Of a stretch of DNA of 64,000 bases, positions 33,003-40,577 are shown one piece after another; positions within the stretch are counted from its first letter, which is position 1, and the number at the start of each line of letters is the position of its first letter. Both the position numbers and the translations under genes were made by a program. Under the pieces are notes generated by a model. The model saw nothing but the letters and a program-made list of their open reading frames with translations. It did no database searches and was not told where the DNA came from. The DNA is from an uncultured delta proteobacterium (GTDB lineage: Bacteria > Myxococcota_A > Polyangia > Fen-1088): the NCBI GenBank assembly GCA_963796685.1, contig CAWCMR010000025.1, positions 800,001 to 864,000 on the forward strand, written 5' to 3'.

Positions 33003-33169
33003 ACCTCGGAGTCACTATGACCAGCCCGGGTCGGCCTGGCAAATTCCGTGAGTACAGAGGGCACAGAGGGGGAGGAGAGCGCGCGGAGGAAGGCAGATGA
33101 GCCGGGGCGATTGCCCGCGACCACGGGGTCGCTTCTAGCTCGGCTGGCGTCGTTGTATGGTGCTGGACC

Positions 33170-37525: not shown

Positions 37526-38572
37526 CTACGCGGCCGCGCTCTCGGCGCTCGCAACCGGCGCCGGCGCGCCGAGCCTCGCATTCTCCGCCTTGCGCAGGGC
37601 GACCAGTTTGTCGCGGAGCTCGGCCGCCAGCTCTGGATGCTCGGCGAGGTACTGGCAGGCCTTGTCGCGTCCTTGGGCGATGCGCTCGCCGTTCCAGGCG
37701 TAGTAGGCGCCGGACTTCTCGATGAGGCCGGCCTCGCTGGCCAGGTCCACGATCTCGCCGACGGCGGAAATGCCGGTGCCATAGGTGATCTCGAATTCGC
37801 ACTCGCGGAAAGGCGGAGCGACCTTGTTCTTCACCACCTTTACGCGCGTCTTGTTGCCGACCACTTGCTCGCCGTTCTTGACCGTGCCGGTCTTGCGGAT
37901 GTCGAGGCGGACGCTGGCGTAAAACTTCAGCGCGTTGCCGCCCGTGGTGGTTTCGGGGTTGCCGTAGACCACGCCGATCTTCTGCCGGAGCTGGTTGATG
38001 AACACCACGCAGGTGTTGTTGCGGCAGGTGGCTGCGGTCAGCTTGCGCAGGGCTTGGCTCATGAGGCGGGCTTGCAAGCCCATGTGGGAATCGCCCATCT
38101 CGCCTTCGATCTCGGCCTTGGGCACGAGCGCGGCCACCGAATCGACGACGATGAGATCGACGGCGCCGGTGCCGACCAGCTTGTCGGCGATCTCCAGGGC
38201 CTGCTCGCCGTGATCGGGTTGCGAGACCAACAAATCCTCGATGCGGACGCCGAGCTTGCGCGCGTAGGTGACGTCCAGGGCGTGTTCGGCGTCGATGAAG
38301 GCGCACACGCCGCCCGCCTTCTGCGCCTGCGCGATGGCGTGCAAGGTCAGCGTGGTCTTGCCCGAGGACTCGGGGCCGAAGATCTCGACCACGCGTCCGC
38401 GCGGCAGGCCGCCCACGCCCAGGGCCAGGTCGAGGCCGACCGAGCCCGTGGGAATGACGTCGATGTCCTCGGCCTCGCCACCGAGGGACATGATGGCGCC
38501 CTTGCCGAATTGCTTCTCGATGGCCGCGAGCGCGCTGGAAATGGCTTTCAGTTTCTCTTTGATGGTGGACAT
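37526..38572 (-). CDS. recA: Recombinase RecA
   Basis: [57 protein letters not shown]. Confidence 0.98.
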
Positions 38573-38574
38573 TT

Positions 38575-39075
38575 CTAATCTCCTTCGTTAGTTGGGTGAA
38601 CCACAGAGGACACAGAGGACACAGAGGACACAGAGGACACAGAGGACACAGAGACGGACTTCGGAGGTTTCAAACGACGAACTCCGTGTTTGAGCAGGCC
38701 GACGTTGAAGTTGATGAGGAGGCCAAGCGGAAGCCCGGAGAGCTTCAGATAGGACAGGAGCTGCGCACTGTGGAGAGCCACCAGTTGGTCGACCGCCTTG
38801 ACCTCGACGATCAGCACATCGTCGATGACCAGATCGAGACGATATCCACAGTCCAGTCGCGAACCTCGATAGACAACGGGGAGTTTGCGCTGGCGCTCGA
38901 CCCGATGTCCCTGAGAGACAAGCTCATGGGCTAGGCAAATCTCGTACGCCGATTCCAAAAGTCCCGGGCCCAGAAACCGGTGAACTTCAATGGCACTTCC
39001 GATTACCGCCTCCGAGATCCGGTTCAACCCGTCCTTTCCGACCTCTGTGTCCTCTGTGTCCTCTGTGGTGAACAT
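38575..39075 (-). CDS. GxxExxY protein (PD-(D/E)XK nuclease family)
   Basis: [44 protein letters not shown]. Confidence 0.93.
38602..38653 (+). repeat. 9-bp tandem array (CACAGAGGA) x5.8
   Basis: Directly visible. Confidence 0.95.
39042..39067 (-). repeat. Inverted 9-bp array (CACAGAGGA) x2.9
   Basis: CCTCTGTGTCCTCTGTGTCCTCTGTG, the reverse complement of the left array. Confidence 0.95.
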
Positions 39076-40577
39076 CAAGCAGTCTCCCTATCTAGAAACC
39101 GGTACTGCAACGCCTCGGCCACGTGCGGGCCACGGACACTGGTGGAGGCCTCCATGTCGGCGATGGTGCGCGCCAGCCTGCGCACGCGTTCGATGGCCCT
39201 CGCGGACAGAGCCAGACGCTCGACCGCGCGTTCGAGGAGGCGGTGGCCGTCGCCGTCGAGCACCGCAACTTTTGCCAGGTCGGGCGTGCTCAGGCGCGCG
39301 TTCGGCCGCGGGCCGCGGTCCAGCTGTCGGCGGCGCGTATTTTCCACCCTGGCGCGGACGTCCACGGTGGCCTCGCCCGTTTTGCTCGACGACAGCTCGC
39401 GGTAGGCCAGGGCAGGCACCTCGACGTGCATGTCGATGCGGTCGAGGAGCGGTCCGGACAGTTTCGCCCGGTAGGCGTTGATGGCGGACTGCGAGCAGGT
39501 GCAGGTGCGCAAGCGGTTGCCGAAGTGGCCGCATGGACACGGATTGAGCGCGGCCACCAGCATGAAGTCCGCCGGAAAGAGCACCGTGCGCCGCGCGCGC
39601 ACCACGGCGATCTCGCGCTCTTCGAGAGGCTGGCGAAGCGCCTCCAGGGCCGGCCGACTGAATTCGAGCAGCTCGTCGAGGAAGAGCACGCCGTTGTGGG
39701 CCAGCGAGATCTCGCCCGGCCGCACCGACGGTCCGCCGCCGGCCAGGCCCGCCACGCTGACCGTGTGGTGGGGCGCGCGAAAAGGCCGCTCGGTGACCAG
39801 GGATCGTCCCGCCAGCATGCCGGCGACGGAGTACACCATGGTGGTTTCCAGCGACTCGTCGAAGGTCAGGGCGGGCAGAAGGCCCGGCAAGCGTCGCGCC
39901 AGCATGGTCTTTCCCGACCCGGGCGGCCCGACGAAGAGGATGTTGTGACCTCCCGAGGCCGCGATCTCGAGAGCCCGGCGCGCGATCTCTTGGCCGCGGA
40001 CGTCGGCCAGGTCGGCGCCCGAGGTGGGCAGAAAAGCAGGCGGCGTCGCCGGCTCGATTCCGGTCGCTGTTCCCTGCAAGGCCTCGATGAGCTCGCCGAG
40101 ATGTCCGACAGGGATGACCGAGCAACCACCCACCACCGCGGCCTCGGAAGCGTTTTCCCTGGGCACGAACAAGCGCGGGATGGCGCGCGCCCGGGCGTAG
40201 GCGGCCATGGGCAGCACGCCGCGTACGGGACGCACGCGCCCGTCGAGGGCCAACTCGCCCACGAACATCGCGCTCTCGTTCACCTCGGGCGGGATGGCGC
40301 CCGCAGCGGCCAGGATACCCACGGCGATGGGAACGTCGAAGGCGGCCCCGTCCTTGCGCAAATCGGCTGGCGCCAGGTTCACGGTGATGCGACGGAGCGG
40401 GTACTTGAAGCCACTGTTCTCGATGGCGCCGCGAATGCGGACGCGGCCTTCCTTCACGCCGGCATCCGGCAGGCCCACGATGCGGCAGCCGGGCAGGCCG
40501 TTGGCCACGTCCACCTCGACGTGGATGGGCGCGGCCTCGATGCCGACGACGGTTGCGGAGAGAACGTGAGTAAGCAC
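39075..40577 (-). CDS. comM: YifB/ComM family Mg-chelatase-like AAA+ ATPase
   Basis: IVGLPD, ITVNLAPADLRKDG, GPPGSGKTMLA, RPFRAPHHT, HNGVLFLDE, NPCPCG, SGPLLDRID, ARTIAD. Confidence 0.93.
   Translation of the reverse strand: MLTHVLSATVVGIEAAPIHVEVDVANGLPGCRIVGLPDAGVKEGRVRIRGAIENSGFKYPLRRITVNLAPADLRKDGAAFDVPIAVGILAAAGAIPPEVNESAMFVGELALDGRVRPVRGVLPMAAYARARAIPRLFVPRENASEAAVVGGCSVIPVGHLGELIEALQGTATGIEPATPPAFLPTSGADLADVRGQEIARRALEIAASGGHNILFVGPPGSGKTMLARRLPGLLPALTFDESLETTMVYSVAGMLAGRSLVTERPFRAPHHTVSVAGLAGGGPSVRPGEISLAHNGVLFLDELLEFSRPALEALRQPLEEREIAVVRARRTVLFPADFMLVAALNPCPCGHFGNRLRTCTCSQSAINAYRAKLSGPLLDRIDMHVEVPALAYRELSSSKTGEATVDVRARVENTRRRQLDRGPRPNARLSTPDLAKVAVLDGDGHRLLERAVERLALSARAIERVRRLARTIADMEASTSVRGPHVAEALQYRFLDRETA

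Follow-up and report, generated by a model that had tools for sequence, protein, structure and literature searches.

The open reading frame (ORF) between comM and recA in the window, by which we mean the whole stretch of 64,000 nucleotides that was analysed, belongs to one copy of a very widespread family of cassettes of about 0.47 kb that is, as far as we know, uncharacterised. The cassette consists of a gene for a GxxExxY protein with a PD-(D/E)XK nuclease domain between inverted arrays of short repeats. Arrays of the same kind are also dispersed as gene-less hairpins almost only in genomes carrying the gene, and this points to a kind of mobile DNA not yet described. We consider the chances about even that the nuclease works together with hairpin repeats of its own in a partnership resembling REPIN-RAYT or an autonomous element with its MITEs. 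In the literature searched on GxxExxY/PDDEXK_3, on the repeat sequences and on links between nucleases and REPs, no description of such a cassette-hairpin system was found, and searches with the repeat strings of the arrays returned unrelated eukaryotic reports only.

Structure of the cassette and its protein

On the minus strand the genes follow each other in the order comM/YifB, GxxExxY ORF and recA, with these features:

39075..40577, minus strand: comM, gene of a YifB-family Mg-chelatase-like AAA ATPase, upstream neighbour of the cassette ORF (TIGR00368, 565 bits)
38575..39078, minus strand: GxxExxY ORF, 167 aa from TTG at 39078; ATG at 39075-39073; stop codon TAG at 38577-38575
38674..39018, minus strand: PD-(D/E)XK (GxxExxY/PDDEXK_3) domain, residues 21-135 (TIGR04256, 140 bits)
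37526..38572, minus strand: recA, downstream neighbour (TIGR02012, 543 bits)
38580..38586, minus strand: recA Shine-Dalgarno sequence GAAGGAG, overlapped by the 3' end of the cassette ORF (from the sequence)
38600..39069, no strand: whole cassette, 470 bp with both arms included (inverted pair 38600-38638 / 39031-39069)
39042..39067: array on the 5' side of the gene, 2.9 copies of a 9-bp unit, coding strand CACAGAGGA, translated as TTEDTEDTE
38602..38653: array on the 3' side of the gene, with the 9-bp unit in 5.8 copies and in the opposite orientation to the other arm, translated as (SVS)n
39068..39073, no strand: GTGAAC on the comM side, GTTCAC when read on the coding strand, where it agrees fully with the family terminal consensus TTnAC
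38596..38601, no strand: GTGAAC on the recA side, matching three of the four consensus positions of the family terminus

The original prediction had described this layout correctly: the 26-bp terminal inverted repeats made of the two 9-bp arrays, the GTGAAC on both sides of the unit and the translation of both arrays at this locus are all present. The arms are perfectly inverted over 26 nt, and the best extended pair reaches 39 nt at 90%. Also as predicted, the ATG of the ORF overlaps the comM stop codon (TGA, 39077-39075) by one base, the A being common to both, and the ORF runs past the recA GAAGGAG to a TAG 2 nt before the recA ATG. An 18-mer from the array had seven matches in the window and none in 100 shuffles. 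Arrays of this kind are often translated into spurious low-complexity tails (e.g. TEDTED, SVSSVS) and give antisense ORFs as well, such as the HRGHRG ORF at 38596-38934.

The ORF matched TIGR04256 with 140 bits (cut-off 35) over profile positions 2-114 of 116, and as the match spans residues 21-135, both arrays lie outside the domain. The name-giving motif is here G39xxE42xxY45 and the PD-(D/E)XK catalytic residues (D...ExK; E42, D82, E92 and K94) are intact; G39, Y45, E92 and K94 were invariant among 10 sequences, and E42 and D82 were conserved in at least 90%. The AlphaFold model (pLDDT 82.7, core above 90) has a restriction-endonuclease-like fold, with 3ijm as the best structural match (Z 8.5), followed at Z 6-7.6 by the type II restriction enzymes BpuSI, SwaI and BglII and by Cas4 and Hjc. 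Foldseek against the PDB gave weak PD-(D/E)XK matches only (best E-value 5e-3), and a sequence search of the PDB with the protein gave no match. This is the sole ORF of the cassette and it falls in none of the recognised transposase families (DDE, Y1, serine, Y2); we know of no precedent for transposition by a PD-(D/E)XK protein on its own. The family (GxxExxY/PDDEXK_3, PF13366) is very common and without known function, and between phyla, archaea included, its members share 49-65% identity. In the 2012 PD-(D/E)XK survey it is entered as 'Unknown', with multiple transfers (PMC3424549).

The same architecture was found in other organisms. Among 78 GxxExxY loci, drawn from archaea and many phyla, 42 had flanking inverted repeats with a score of 15 or more, compared to 16 of 229 shuffled pairs. 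Nearly all of the repeats in the 42 loci were triple-heptamer arrays. An arm normally has three heptamers (CRCRRAG and relatives) spaced 8-10 bp, and on its outer side, before the first heptamer, stands the terminal consensus TTnAC. Sorting the loci by exact heptamer for comparison with the protein tree was given up because 46 of the 78 had mixed heptamers. The median unit length was 466 bp in 65 loci from other organisms, and gene-bearing cassettes were seen also in archaea. The 9-bp repeats had been predicted to preserve the reading frame by design, a claim that the comparison does not support, as the first in-frame ATG came after the 5' arm in 40 of the 65 loci, the stop codon came before the 3' arm in 53, and in many loci the array units were of 8 bp.

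The predicted placement within operons was, on the other hand, supported as the typical one: in 22 of the 25 loci with neighbours identified on both sides, the cassette lies inside an operon in the operon's orientation. Neighbours were identified by Pfam, in the first 34 of the 65 loci, since orientation of the flanks from the longest open frame proved unreliable in GC-rich DNA and was dropped. This position in sense orientation could also mean that nothing moves here. In that case the arms would form a stem in the mRNA through which the operon transcript and the nuclease ORF are processed, stabilised or gated in translation, and the hairpins elsewhere would be REP-like regulatory or terminator structures. 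Long stems are possible, and on inspection many loci have, directly before the start codon, a purine-rich 5' arm similar to a Shine-Dalgarno sequence. However, mismatches between the arms had no bias towards G:U on the sense strand (96 vs 95), which favours a role at the DNA level over an mRNA stem. Rfam gave no match at the gathering score, only generic hairpin (miRNA-precursor) matches far below that threshold at three loci (L034, L169, L170). The patchy, horizontal distribution and the insertion polymorphism described below likewise speak against an mRNA stem, and we regard this explanation as very improbable.

Gene-less hairpins and their association with the gene

In this genome the 18-mer had 95 matches at about 60 loci, compared to none for the reversed control. 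Gene-less hairpins of about 100 bp, with inverted arms 43-63 bp apart, make up 25 of the 60 loci, and by inspection they resemble the cassette beyond the arrays, to about codon 22 and over the last ~12 nt before the 3' array. Only one intact gene is present. The genome has in addition a second, degraded GxxExxY subfamily with a different array of its own (26 matches vs 0 in the control), and two other genomes (G037 and G019) have yet other arrays; the gene subfamilies thus have their own arrays. On contigs from three peat metagenomes and a soil metatranscriptome, depth was 390-1550 over the arrays and 0-20 over the gene body. Among these public runs all shares were at most 0.12, and the joints seen were those of other gene-less hairpins and not excision of the comM-recA locus; the single RNA library consists of contigs only, from which transcript ends are absent.

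The arrays and the gene occur together. Within the genus, the eight gene-bearing genomes had 24-296 array matches and the five without the gene 0-16. Across 251 genomes of the phylum the gene is carried by 39 in a patchy distribution, and at least 15 triple-heptamer matches were found in 17 of these 39 compared to one of the 212 gene-less genomes (Fisher p = 8e-15, a value that overstates the evidence because related genomes are not independent samples). All nine of the 251 genomes with at least 40 matches carry the gene. Fewer than 15 matches were found in 22 of the 39 gene-bearing genomes, counts that may be too low as the pattern covers CRCRRAG-type arrays only. The number of matches is far above twice the gene copy number (e.g. 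107 matches with one gene). Outside the phylum, an Acidobacteriaceae chromosome had 73 matches, Horticoccus 50, a Chloroflexia MAG 160 and Stieleria 21, with none in the controls. One genome (G032) is an exception, with 102 triple-heptamer matches, mostly hairpins, and no GxxExxY gene detected at 91% completeness.

In a rival reading, to which this exception lends support, the arms belong to a hairpin element that is moved or maintained by other machinery (perhaps a recombinase or transposase of the host or of an IS), and the nuclease is no more than its cargo, with a role in defence or addiction for instance. This genome has a four-helix-bundle gene (TIGR02436) between hairpin arrays of another type, which shows that a small ORF can be flanked by arrays without coding for a nuclease, and such genes may themselves be cargo; hairpins as well as the gene module also ride inside other TIR elements with target duplications. 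Against this, the gene and the arrays strongly co-occur and are lost together, and different gene subfamilies have different arrays. A RAYT/Y1 transposase, the only candidate enzyme examined as the mobiliser, was rejected as it does not track the arrays: none was found in this genome (G000; no match to PF01797 at 88.6% completeness), in G003 or in G009. We consider cargo status unlikely, and prefer the reading in which the hairpins belong to the nuclease.

History and mobility of the cassette

In the genus, the cassette lies at comM-recA in seven of 13 genomes, with remnants in three more, and gene-less genomes lie at scattered places in the comM+recA tree. In G009 a comM-linked recA was not found, only a paralogue. 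The comparison of comM-recA junctions in relatives, which the original prediction had proposed, gave five empty ones, the gene-less one of G007 with a single TCAC at the corresponding place; three of the five hold deletion remnants, each different. The copy in the window is an old resident, ancestral in the genus, with no sign of recent movement, and the claim of a recent insertion at this site is not supported, as the gene is syntenic in the genus and these three junctions show deletion. The alleles have a history of their own: between G000 and G002 the flanks are 88% and 94% identical and the cassette 65%, whereas between G000 and G006 the flanks are 74% and 88% identical and the cassette 82%. 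Congeners have exchanged cassette alleles, and some lineages have lost the cassette by deletion.

These observations also fit a homing-endonuclease-like gene, whose nuclease would cut cassette-free junctions or those with rival alleles. The cassette would then be copied in by homologous recombination via the conserved flanks, the gene-less hairpins being decayed relics or targets that the enzyme does not mobilise. Presence or absence at one fixed site between conserved genes and allele replacement at odds with the flanks are what such a gene would give, internally deleted gene copies exist, and PD-(D/E)XK homing endonucleases are known (I-Ssp6803I). Related taxa moreover reuse the same junctions: trpD-trpC in L096 (L150 and L160 by eye only), carA-carB in L105 (L137 by eye only) and tRNA synthetase-arginase in L091 and L101. 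Homing nevertheless leaves unexplained why the three-heptamer arms are conserved across phyla, why hairpins are 30- to 100-fold more numerous than genes and how the cassette spread to unrelated junctions across phyla, and we give it a low probability.

The direct repeat GTGAAC had been taken for a target duplication, and this interpretation is not supported. In 55 related loci the flanks are inverted (TTnAC before the heptamers, GTnAA after them), a direct repeat of at least 4 bp at the heptamer boundary was found in none of the 55, and there was no enrichment at any offset. An 8-mer test for target duplications gave no signal either (3 of 65 loci vs 6 of 320). Congeners with other alleles have ATCAC...GTGAAAA and lack the direct repeat, the pair in the window being an exception. 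Of the marks of a classical TIR transposon, the cassette has the terminal inverted repeats and lacks the target-site duplication; of the two features that the original prediction had proposed to look for in other GxxExxY loci, inverted arrays were found (42/78) and target duplications were not (0/55). The full model of the original prediction, a discrete insertion that duplicated GTGAAC and whose frame-preserving 9-bp repeats were recognition ends keeping translation coupled, can point to a 6-bp direct repeat that is real, to the single TCAC of the G007 junction and to an ORF that reads through both arrays in all seven syntenic copies of the genus. Yet the inverted flanks, the congeners without the repeat, the arrays elsewhere that are usually untranslated and often of 8-bp units, and the ancestral position of the locus largely refute it, and we give it hardly any credence.

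Evidence for movement comes from the hairpins, which some congeners have and others lack at orthologous sites. The clean cases, sites 1 and 4, are composite MITEs of 227-250 bp with their own outer inverted repeats and the hairpin inside. Sites 3, 5, 6 and 7 show presence and absence with diverged or imprecise boundaries, and no clean junction, filled versus empty, was recovered for the core hairpin among the congener sites compared. One congener (G004) had a burst of 53 matches, which is an element of about 640 bp with a different 23-bp terminal repeat and target duplications of 9-10 bp; it is probably moved by other machinery. The idea of a selfish, mobile cassette is supported in its general form, given the patchy distribution (39/251), the 49-65% identity across phyla, the burst in one congener and the many gene-less derivatives, and is not supported as a claim of recent insertion here.

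Proposed mechanism and comparison with known systems

It is plausible that the arrays are putative recognition ends of the nuclease, which may bind or cleave the arms and in this way drive their spread. In such a mechanism the nuclease would recognise the arms and make DNA breaks, and arm-bounded units would be copied to new intergenic sites without target duplication. The hairpins of about 100 bp, which have these arms and no gene, would be non-autonomous derivatives, for which the nuclease is supplied in trans. The cassette, which has no evident promoter, would be expressed by read-through of the host operon; at comM-recA its ORF would be translationally coupled to comM, with the recA ribosome-binding site left intact. 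A stronger version of this, which we offer tentatively and hold to be less likely than not, is that GxxExxY proteins, with nothing but the PD-(D/E)XK domain, represent a transposase or mobilising nuclease of a new class, that the operon-dwelling, read-through-expressed cassette of ~466 bp is the smallest autonomous prokaryotic mobile element known, and that it seeds and maintains REPIN-like triple-heptamer hairpins in at least five bacterial phyla.

A conserved DNA partner for GxxExxY would explain where the many short hairpin repeats of peat and soil bacteria come from, would give a function to the orphan family GxxExxY/PDDEXK_3, and would make available a very small nuclease whose putative DNA target is defined and looks programmable.

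Several known systems share features with the cassette. Free-standing homing endonuclease genes are small, lie between conserved genes, are patchy in relatives and have alleles that differ from their flanks, and the GxxExxY gene is alike in each of these respects; to our knowledge, however, they have neither conserved terminal repeat arrays nor a large population of gene-less derivatives. The TIGR02436 cassettes (four-helix bundle, '23S rRNA intervening sequence protein') also have a small ORF within inverted repeats and hairpins built from short tandem units (two loci, one genome), but the protein is unrelated, has no nuclease motifs and goes with another array sequence. Elements of the IS200/IS605 type are very small, with hairpin-forming ends, no target duplication and ties to palindromic repeats. 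The cassette resembles them in all four points, although IS200 is larger than ~466 bp, the catalytic protein is unrelated and the cassette is symmetric with identical inverted arms. As with MITEs and their autonomous parent, gene-less units far outnumber the gene-bearing unit and internally deleted intermediates exist; in contrast to MITEs, the cassette has no known transposase family and no target duplication was found, and some hairpins are themselves passengers inside true MITEs with TIRs and target-site duplications.

In REPIN-RAYT a low-copy gene is flanked by a repeat that is also dispersed as gene-less hairpin doublets, the RAYT stays in one extragenic space per lineage, and the repeats dwindle after gene loss (PMC3116915, PMC3337134, 10.1101/2021.07.10.451892). 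The GxxExxY gene differs in having a PD-(D/E)XK fold where RAYT is an HUH/Y1 (IS200-like) transposase, in its triple heptamer arrays where REPIN-RAYT has a single REP palindrome, in its position, usually inside operons, and in being patchy and clearly transferred between phyla, so that its inheritance is not strictly vertical. It is alike in being low-copy and flanked by a repeat dispersed as inverted doublets, in keeping to one extragenic space within the lineage and in the lower number of arrays where the gene has been lost, and the repeat population is tied to the gene, here as a correlation with G032 as the exception. The cassette would be a second, independent example of a nuclease that resides in a genome together with a population of repeats of its own, with an enzyme other than RAYT.

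The cassette at the comM-recA junction

In the window, comM/YifB, the GxxExxY ORF and recA are consecutive on the minus strand, and the ORF contains two inverted arrays of a 9-bp unit.

Features of the focal locus
39075-40577, minus strand: comM/YifB (TIGR00368, 565 bits)
38575-39078, minus strand: GxxExxY ORF of 167 codons (TIGR04256 at residues 21-135, 140 bits, cut-off 35)
37526-38572, minus strand: recA (TIGR02012, 543 bits)
38602-38653: array of the unit CACAGAGGA, 5.8 copies
39042-39067: array of CACAGAGGA inverted, 2.9 copies

The sequence features reported here in the original prediction were all borne out. Complementarity between the arms is perfect over 26 nt and reaches 90% across 39 nt (38600-38638 and 39031-39069), GTGAAC flanks the cassette on either side, the ATG of the GxxExxY ORF overlaps the comM TGA by one base, and its TAG lies 2 nt upstream of the recA ATG and downstream of the recA GAAGGAG. 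The 18-mer of the arrays occurs seven times in the window compared to none in 100 shuffles. The arrays also produce plus-strand antisense ORFs (38596-38934, and 38980-39405 with ...LCVLCVLCG...), mechanical by-products that annotation might mistake for genes. A single degenerate half-array, TACAGAGGGCACAGAGGGGGAGGAGAGCGCGCGGAGG, lies at 33050-33090; no inverted partner is evident, and it is probably a decayed hairpin.

The GTGAAC pair had been taken for a target duplication, and this part of the prediction was not supported. The comM-side copy is the exact terminal consensus of the family and the recA-side copy fits it at three of four consensus positions, while congeners with other alleles have ATCAC...GTGAAAA instead, and the pair is therefore, in our reading, no target duplication. 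The termini are inverted, and direct repeats of at least 4 bp were found at the heptamer boundary in none of 55 loci, with no enrichment at any offset. A local duplication may have taken place in the lineage of the focal allele, as the gene-less G007 junction has a single TCAC at the corresponding place. The specific model of the original prediction, a discrete insertion here that duplicated GTGAAC and has frame-preserving 9-bp repeats as recognition ends, is, in our opinion, highly improbable.

The order comM-GxxExxY-recA is present in six of the 12 congeners (G002, G003, G004, G005, G006 and G010), always with inverted arrays at either end and with the ORF reading through them. In five congeners comM adjoins recA without the gene.

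Gene-less comM-recA junctions among congeners
G001: about 39 bp; ORF start and beginning of the first heptamer left
G011: about 145 bp; 3' end of the gene and its array left
G008: about 89 bp; 3' array left
G007: about 41 bp; no trace
G012: about 45 bp; no trace

In G009 a comM-linked recA was searched for and not found, and both of its GxxExxY genes belong to another subfamily. Gene-less genomes are scattered among the carriers in the DNA tree of comM and recA, where well-supported branches force at least three changes, and the cassette is therefore ancestral in the genus and has repeatedly been lost by deletion. Its inheritance is not simply vertical, as the cassette alleles are discordant with their flanks.

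Pairwise identities of the last 450 nt of comM, the first 450 nt of recA and the cassette
G000-G002: comM 88%, recA 94%, cassette 65%
G000-G006: comM 74%, recA 88%, cassette 82%
G005-G003: comM 94%, recA 90%, cassette 65%
G010-G005: comM 76%, recA 88%, cassette 85%

The discordance points either to allele exchange at a fixed site or to an old polymorphism sorted differently among the lineages. Homing-like replacement via the conserved flanks is an explanation that we regard as rather unlikely. Elsewhere in the genomes of the genus and its relatives lies a second recA paralogue (L067, L069, L070, L072 and L083-L086), with 65-73% identity to the recA of the window.

Architecture of the family and its protein

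A survey with one genome per species gave 79 GxxExxY loci (protein identity 49-65%) in Acidobacteriota, Verrucomicrobiota, Planctomycetota, Chloroflexota, Bacteroidota, several proteobacterial classes, Chlamydiae-like organisms and two archaeal MAGs. This array-bounded architecture holds across the family: a flanking inverted repeat with a score of at least 15 was found in 42 of 78 usable loci compared to 16 of 229 shuffled pairings, and with a score of at least 12 in 61 of 78 compared to 29 of 229. Nearly all of these repeats are three heptamers (CACAGAG, CGCAGAG, CACGAAG, CGCAAAG and similar) with spacers of 1-3 nt, and the length and sequence of the spacers are mirrored between the arms of one element and differ from element to element. 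In 65 loci the median unit length is 466 bp (range 410-619), and the focal unit measures 466 bp between its outer heptamers; both ends carry the same consensus, inverted, in which TTnAC precedes the first heptamer. Of the 65 loci, 40 have their first in-frame ATG downstream of the 5' arm and nine have it upstream, and the stop codon precedes the 3' arm in 53, so that translated arrays, as in the focal genus, are the exception.

Neighbouring genes were sought with Pfam at the first 34 of these 65 loci and identified on both sides in 25, on one in seven and on neither in two. The suggestion that the cassette invades operons proved to describe a family trait, since both neighbours are co-oriented with it in 22 of 25 loci, the others being one divergent and two convergent pairs. 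In many cases the two co-oriented neighbours are successive genes of a single pathway or complex: trpD-trpC, trpE-trpG/D, carA-carB, hisH-hisA/F, leuC-leuD, motA-motB, fliH-fliI, sbcD-sbcC, sufB/D-sufS, queC-queE, and an ABC-transporter ATPase with its permease.

An alignment of 10 GxxExxY sequences showed no variation at G39, Y45, E92 and K94, and conservation of at least 90% at E42 and D82. AlphaFold modelled residues 17-142 with confidence and both translated arrays as disordered, and the model is closest in structure to 3ijm, a restriction-endonuclease-like protein (Z 8.5, rmsd 3.3, 100 aligned residues), followed by type II restriction enzymes, Cas4 and Hjc (Z 6-7.6). The predicted fold is that of a generic PD-(D/E)XK DNA nuclease, without a close solved relative. 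A purely RNA-level or regulatory structure is very unlikely to be the explanation: arm-to-arm transition mismatches in the 65 loci split evenly into 96 sense-strand G:T-type and 95 A:C-type, so that selection for a sense-RNA stem is not visible, and no Rfam family matched the arms. The mirrored spacers and the lack of strand bias agree with DNA-level recognition or pairing.

Dispersed arrays, gene-less hairpins and their carriers

In the focal genome (7.3 Mb in 26 contigs, 88.6% complete) the 18-mer has 95 matches with at most two mismatches, compared to none for the reversed control, and 138 with at most three, grouped in 60 loci. Both arm orientations are present in 27 of the 60; in 25 of these the arms are 43-63 bp apart, forming hairpin units of about 100 bp, and the remaining two are one locus with 235-bp spacing and the focal locus itself. 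By inspection, the sequence shared by hairpins and cassette reaches past the arrays, as far as codon 22 or so of the ORF at one end and over the final 12 nt or so ahead of the 3' array at the other, and the hairpins look like the cassette minus its middle. A single GxxExxY gene is intact in the genome, besides two internally deleted fragments of another subfamily (GPGFLES), L002 (G000:C25:1266996-1267124) and L003 (G000:C13:521578-521679). Both are bracketed by a different inverted array, of GGAAGCCAGGAAAGCAGGAAG type, which is also dispersed (26 matches, none for the reversed control).

Within the genus, matches to a two-unit pattern (controls 0-1) number 151 in G000, 133 in G002, 62 in G003, 24 in G004, 296 in G005, 55 in G006, 170 in G009 and 150 in G010, all with the gene, and 16 in G001, 5 in G011, 2 in G012, 1 in G007 and 0 in G008, which are without it. 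In an even sample of 251 genomes of the phylum (39 with the gene, 212 without), at least 15 triple-heptamer matches were found in 17 carriers and one non-carrier (Fisher p = 8e-15, kinship ignored, and therefore overstating the evidence as the genomes are related), at least five in 26 carriers and seven non-carriers, and at least 40 in nine genomes from at least eight families, all carriers. Matches far exceed two per gene copy (107 with one gene, 180 with three). In the genomes behind five loci of the cross-phyla survey there were 73 in an Acidobacteriaceae chromosome, 50 in Horticoccus, 160 in Chloroflexia, 21 in Stieleria and 0 in Flavobacterium, with all controls 0. Against the link, G032 (91% complete) has 102 matches, mostly hairpins spaced 49-82 bp, and no detected GxxExxY gene; G082 has 35, but mostly in direct repeats; and 22 of the 39 carriers have fewer than 15. 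At least some carriers have array types outside the search pattern (GGGAAGGC three times in G037, CGCCAAG three times in G019). In public runs (contigs only, small shares, with no bearing on the focal locus), three peat metagenomes and one soil metatranscriptome had a summed contig depth of 390-1550 on the two arrays compared to 0-20 on the gene body, and the joints seen were gene-less hairpins of other loci or organisms.

Hairpin presence varies at orthologous sites among congeners. Sites 1 and 4 are cleanly empty in G002 and G010, and the insert is a composite MITE of 227-250 bp with the CACAGAG hairpin inside its own outer inverted repeats, TAGAGCACCGAACG ... CGTTCGGTGCTCTA (G000:C26:34331-34549, L167; G000:C15:146404-146652, L166), of which G000, G002 and G006 have many copies. 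At sites 3, 5, 6 and 7 G000, and often its sister G002 as well, has core hairpins that are missing or decayed in others; their boundaries have diverged and no duplication is visible. G004 has 53 GxxExxY matches, of which the near-identical copies (e.g. L048, L054, L056 and L058-L063) form an element of about 640 bp with a 23-bp terminal inverted repeat GGGTGCCTCCCTGAAACGGGGGC and target duplications of 9-10 bp, enclosing the gene and its own inner arrays. Truncations or frameshifts affect many of the copies, no transposase could be assigned to the element, and it is also found in a public MAG labelled uncultured delta proteobacterium (L156, L162). Hairpins and gene modules can thus travel as passengers of other elements. 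An unrelated short repeat family lies at about 3141-3350 of L167 (G000:C26:33141-33350), with many copies in G004 and G002 and numerous 60-200-bp matches in the congener comparison.

Candidate mobilisers and known systems

No Y1/RAYT transposase was found in the array-rich G000, G003 and G009, and array-poor genomes gave weak or unrelated matches. IS200-type (Y1_Tnp) genes in seven near-identical copies were seen in G010 alone among the congeners (L214 and six further places), and they have no relation to the heptamer arrays. That the cassette rides as cargo in an element which something else moves seems to us improbable, though a four-helix-bundle gene of the focal genome (TIGR02436, '23S rRNA intervening sequence protein' family; G000:C5:241166-241405, L212) is likewise flanked by hairpins, of a different short tandem unit of GTGGCCGTGGTCGTGGCC type that also abuts one CACAGAG hairpin (G000:C25:1617333). 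In view of this gene, such arms may belong to a broader cassette class with the ORF as cargo, and array-flanked small ORFs may form a wider class.

A partnership of the nuclease with its own arms has, in our judgement, an even chance of being the correct explanation. The enzyme would recognise the triple-heptamer arms, and its breaks would let units bounded by such arms, gene-bearing or gene-less, be copied to places in intergenic DNA with no duplication. Gene-less hairpins would rely on the nuclease in trans, and the cassette would be kept where read-through from the host expresses the nuclease.

The cassette is not a classical IS, as it has neither a known transposase nor a target duplication. 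No published description of the GxxExxY gene with arrays was found in main texts, mostly outside subscription journals. It is a tentative and rather doubtful idea that GxxExxY is a categorically new class of transposase carried by the smallest autonomous prokaryotic element. Although the enzymes differ (PD-(D/E)XK in GxxExxY, HUH/Y1 in RAYT) and the GxxExxY system, unlike REPIN-RAYT, is not strictly vertically inherited, REPIN-RAYT is the closest in working (10.1101/2021.07.10.451892): in both, a resident gene is flanked by its repeat, hairpin doublets are dispersed, and the repeats decay after the gene is lost.
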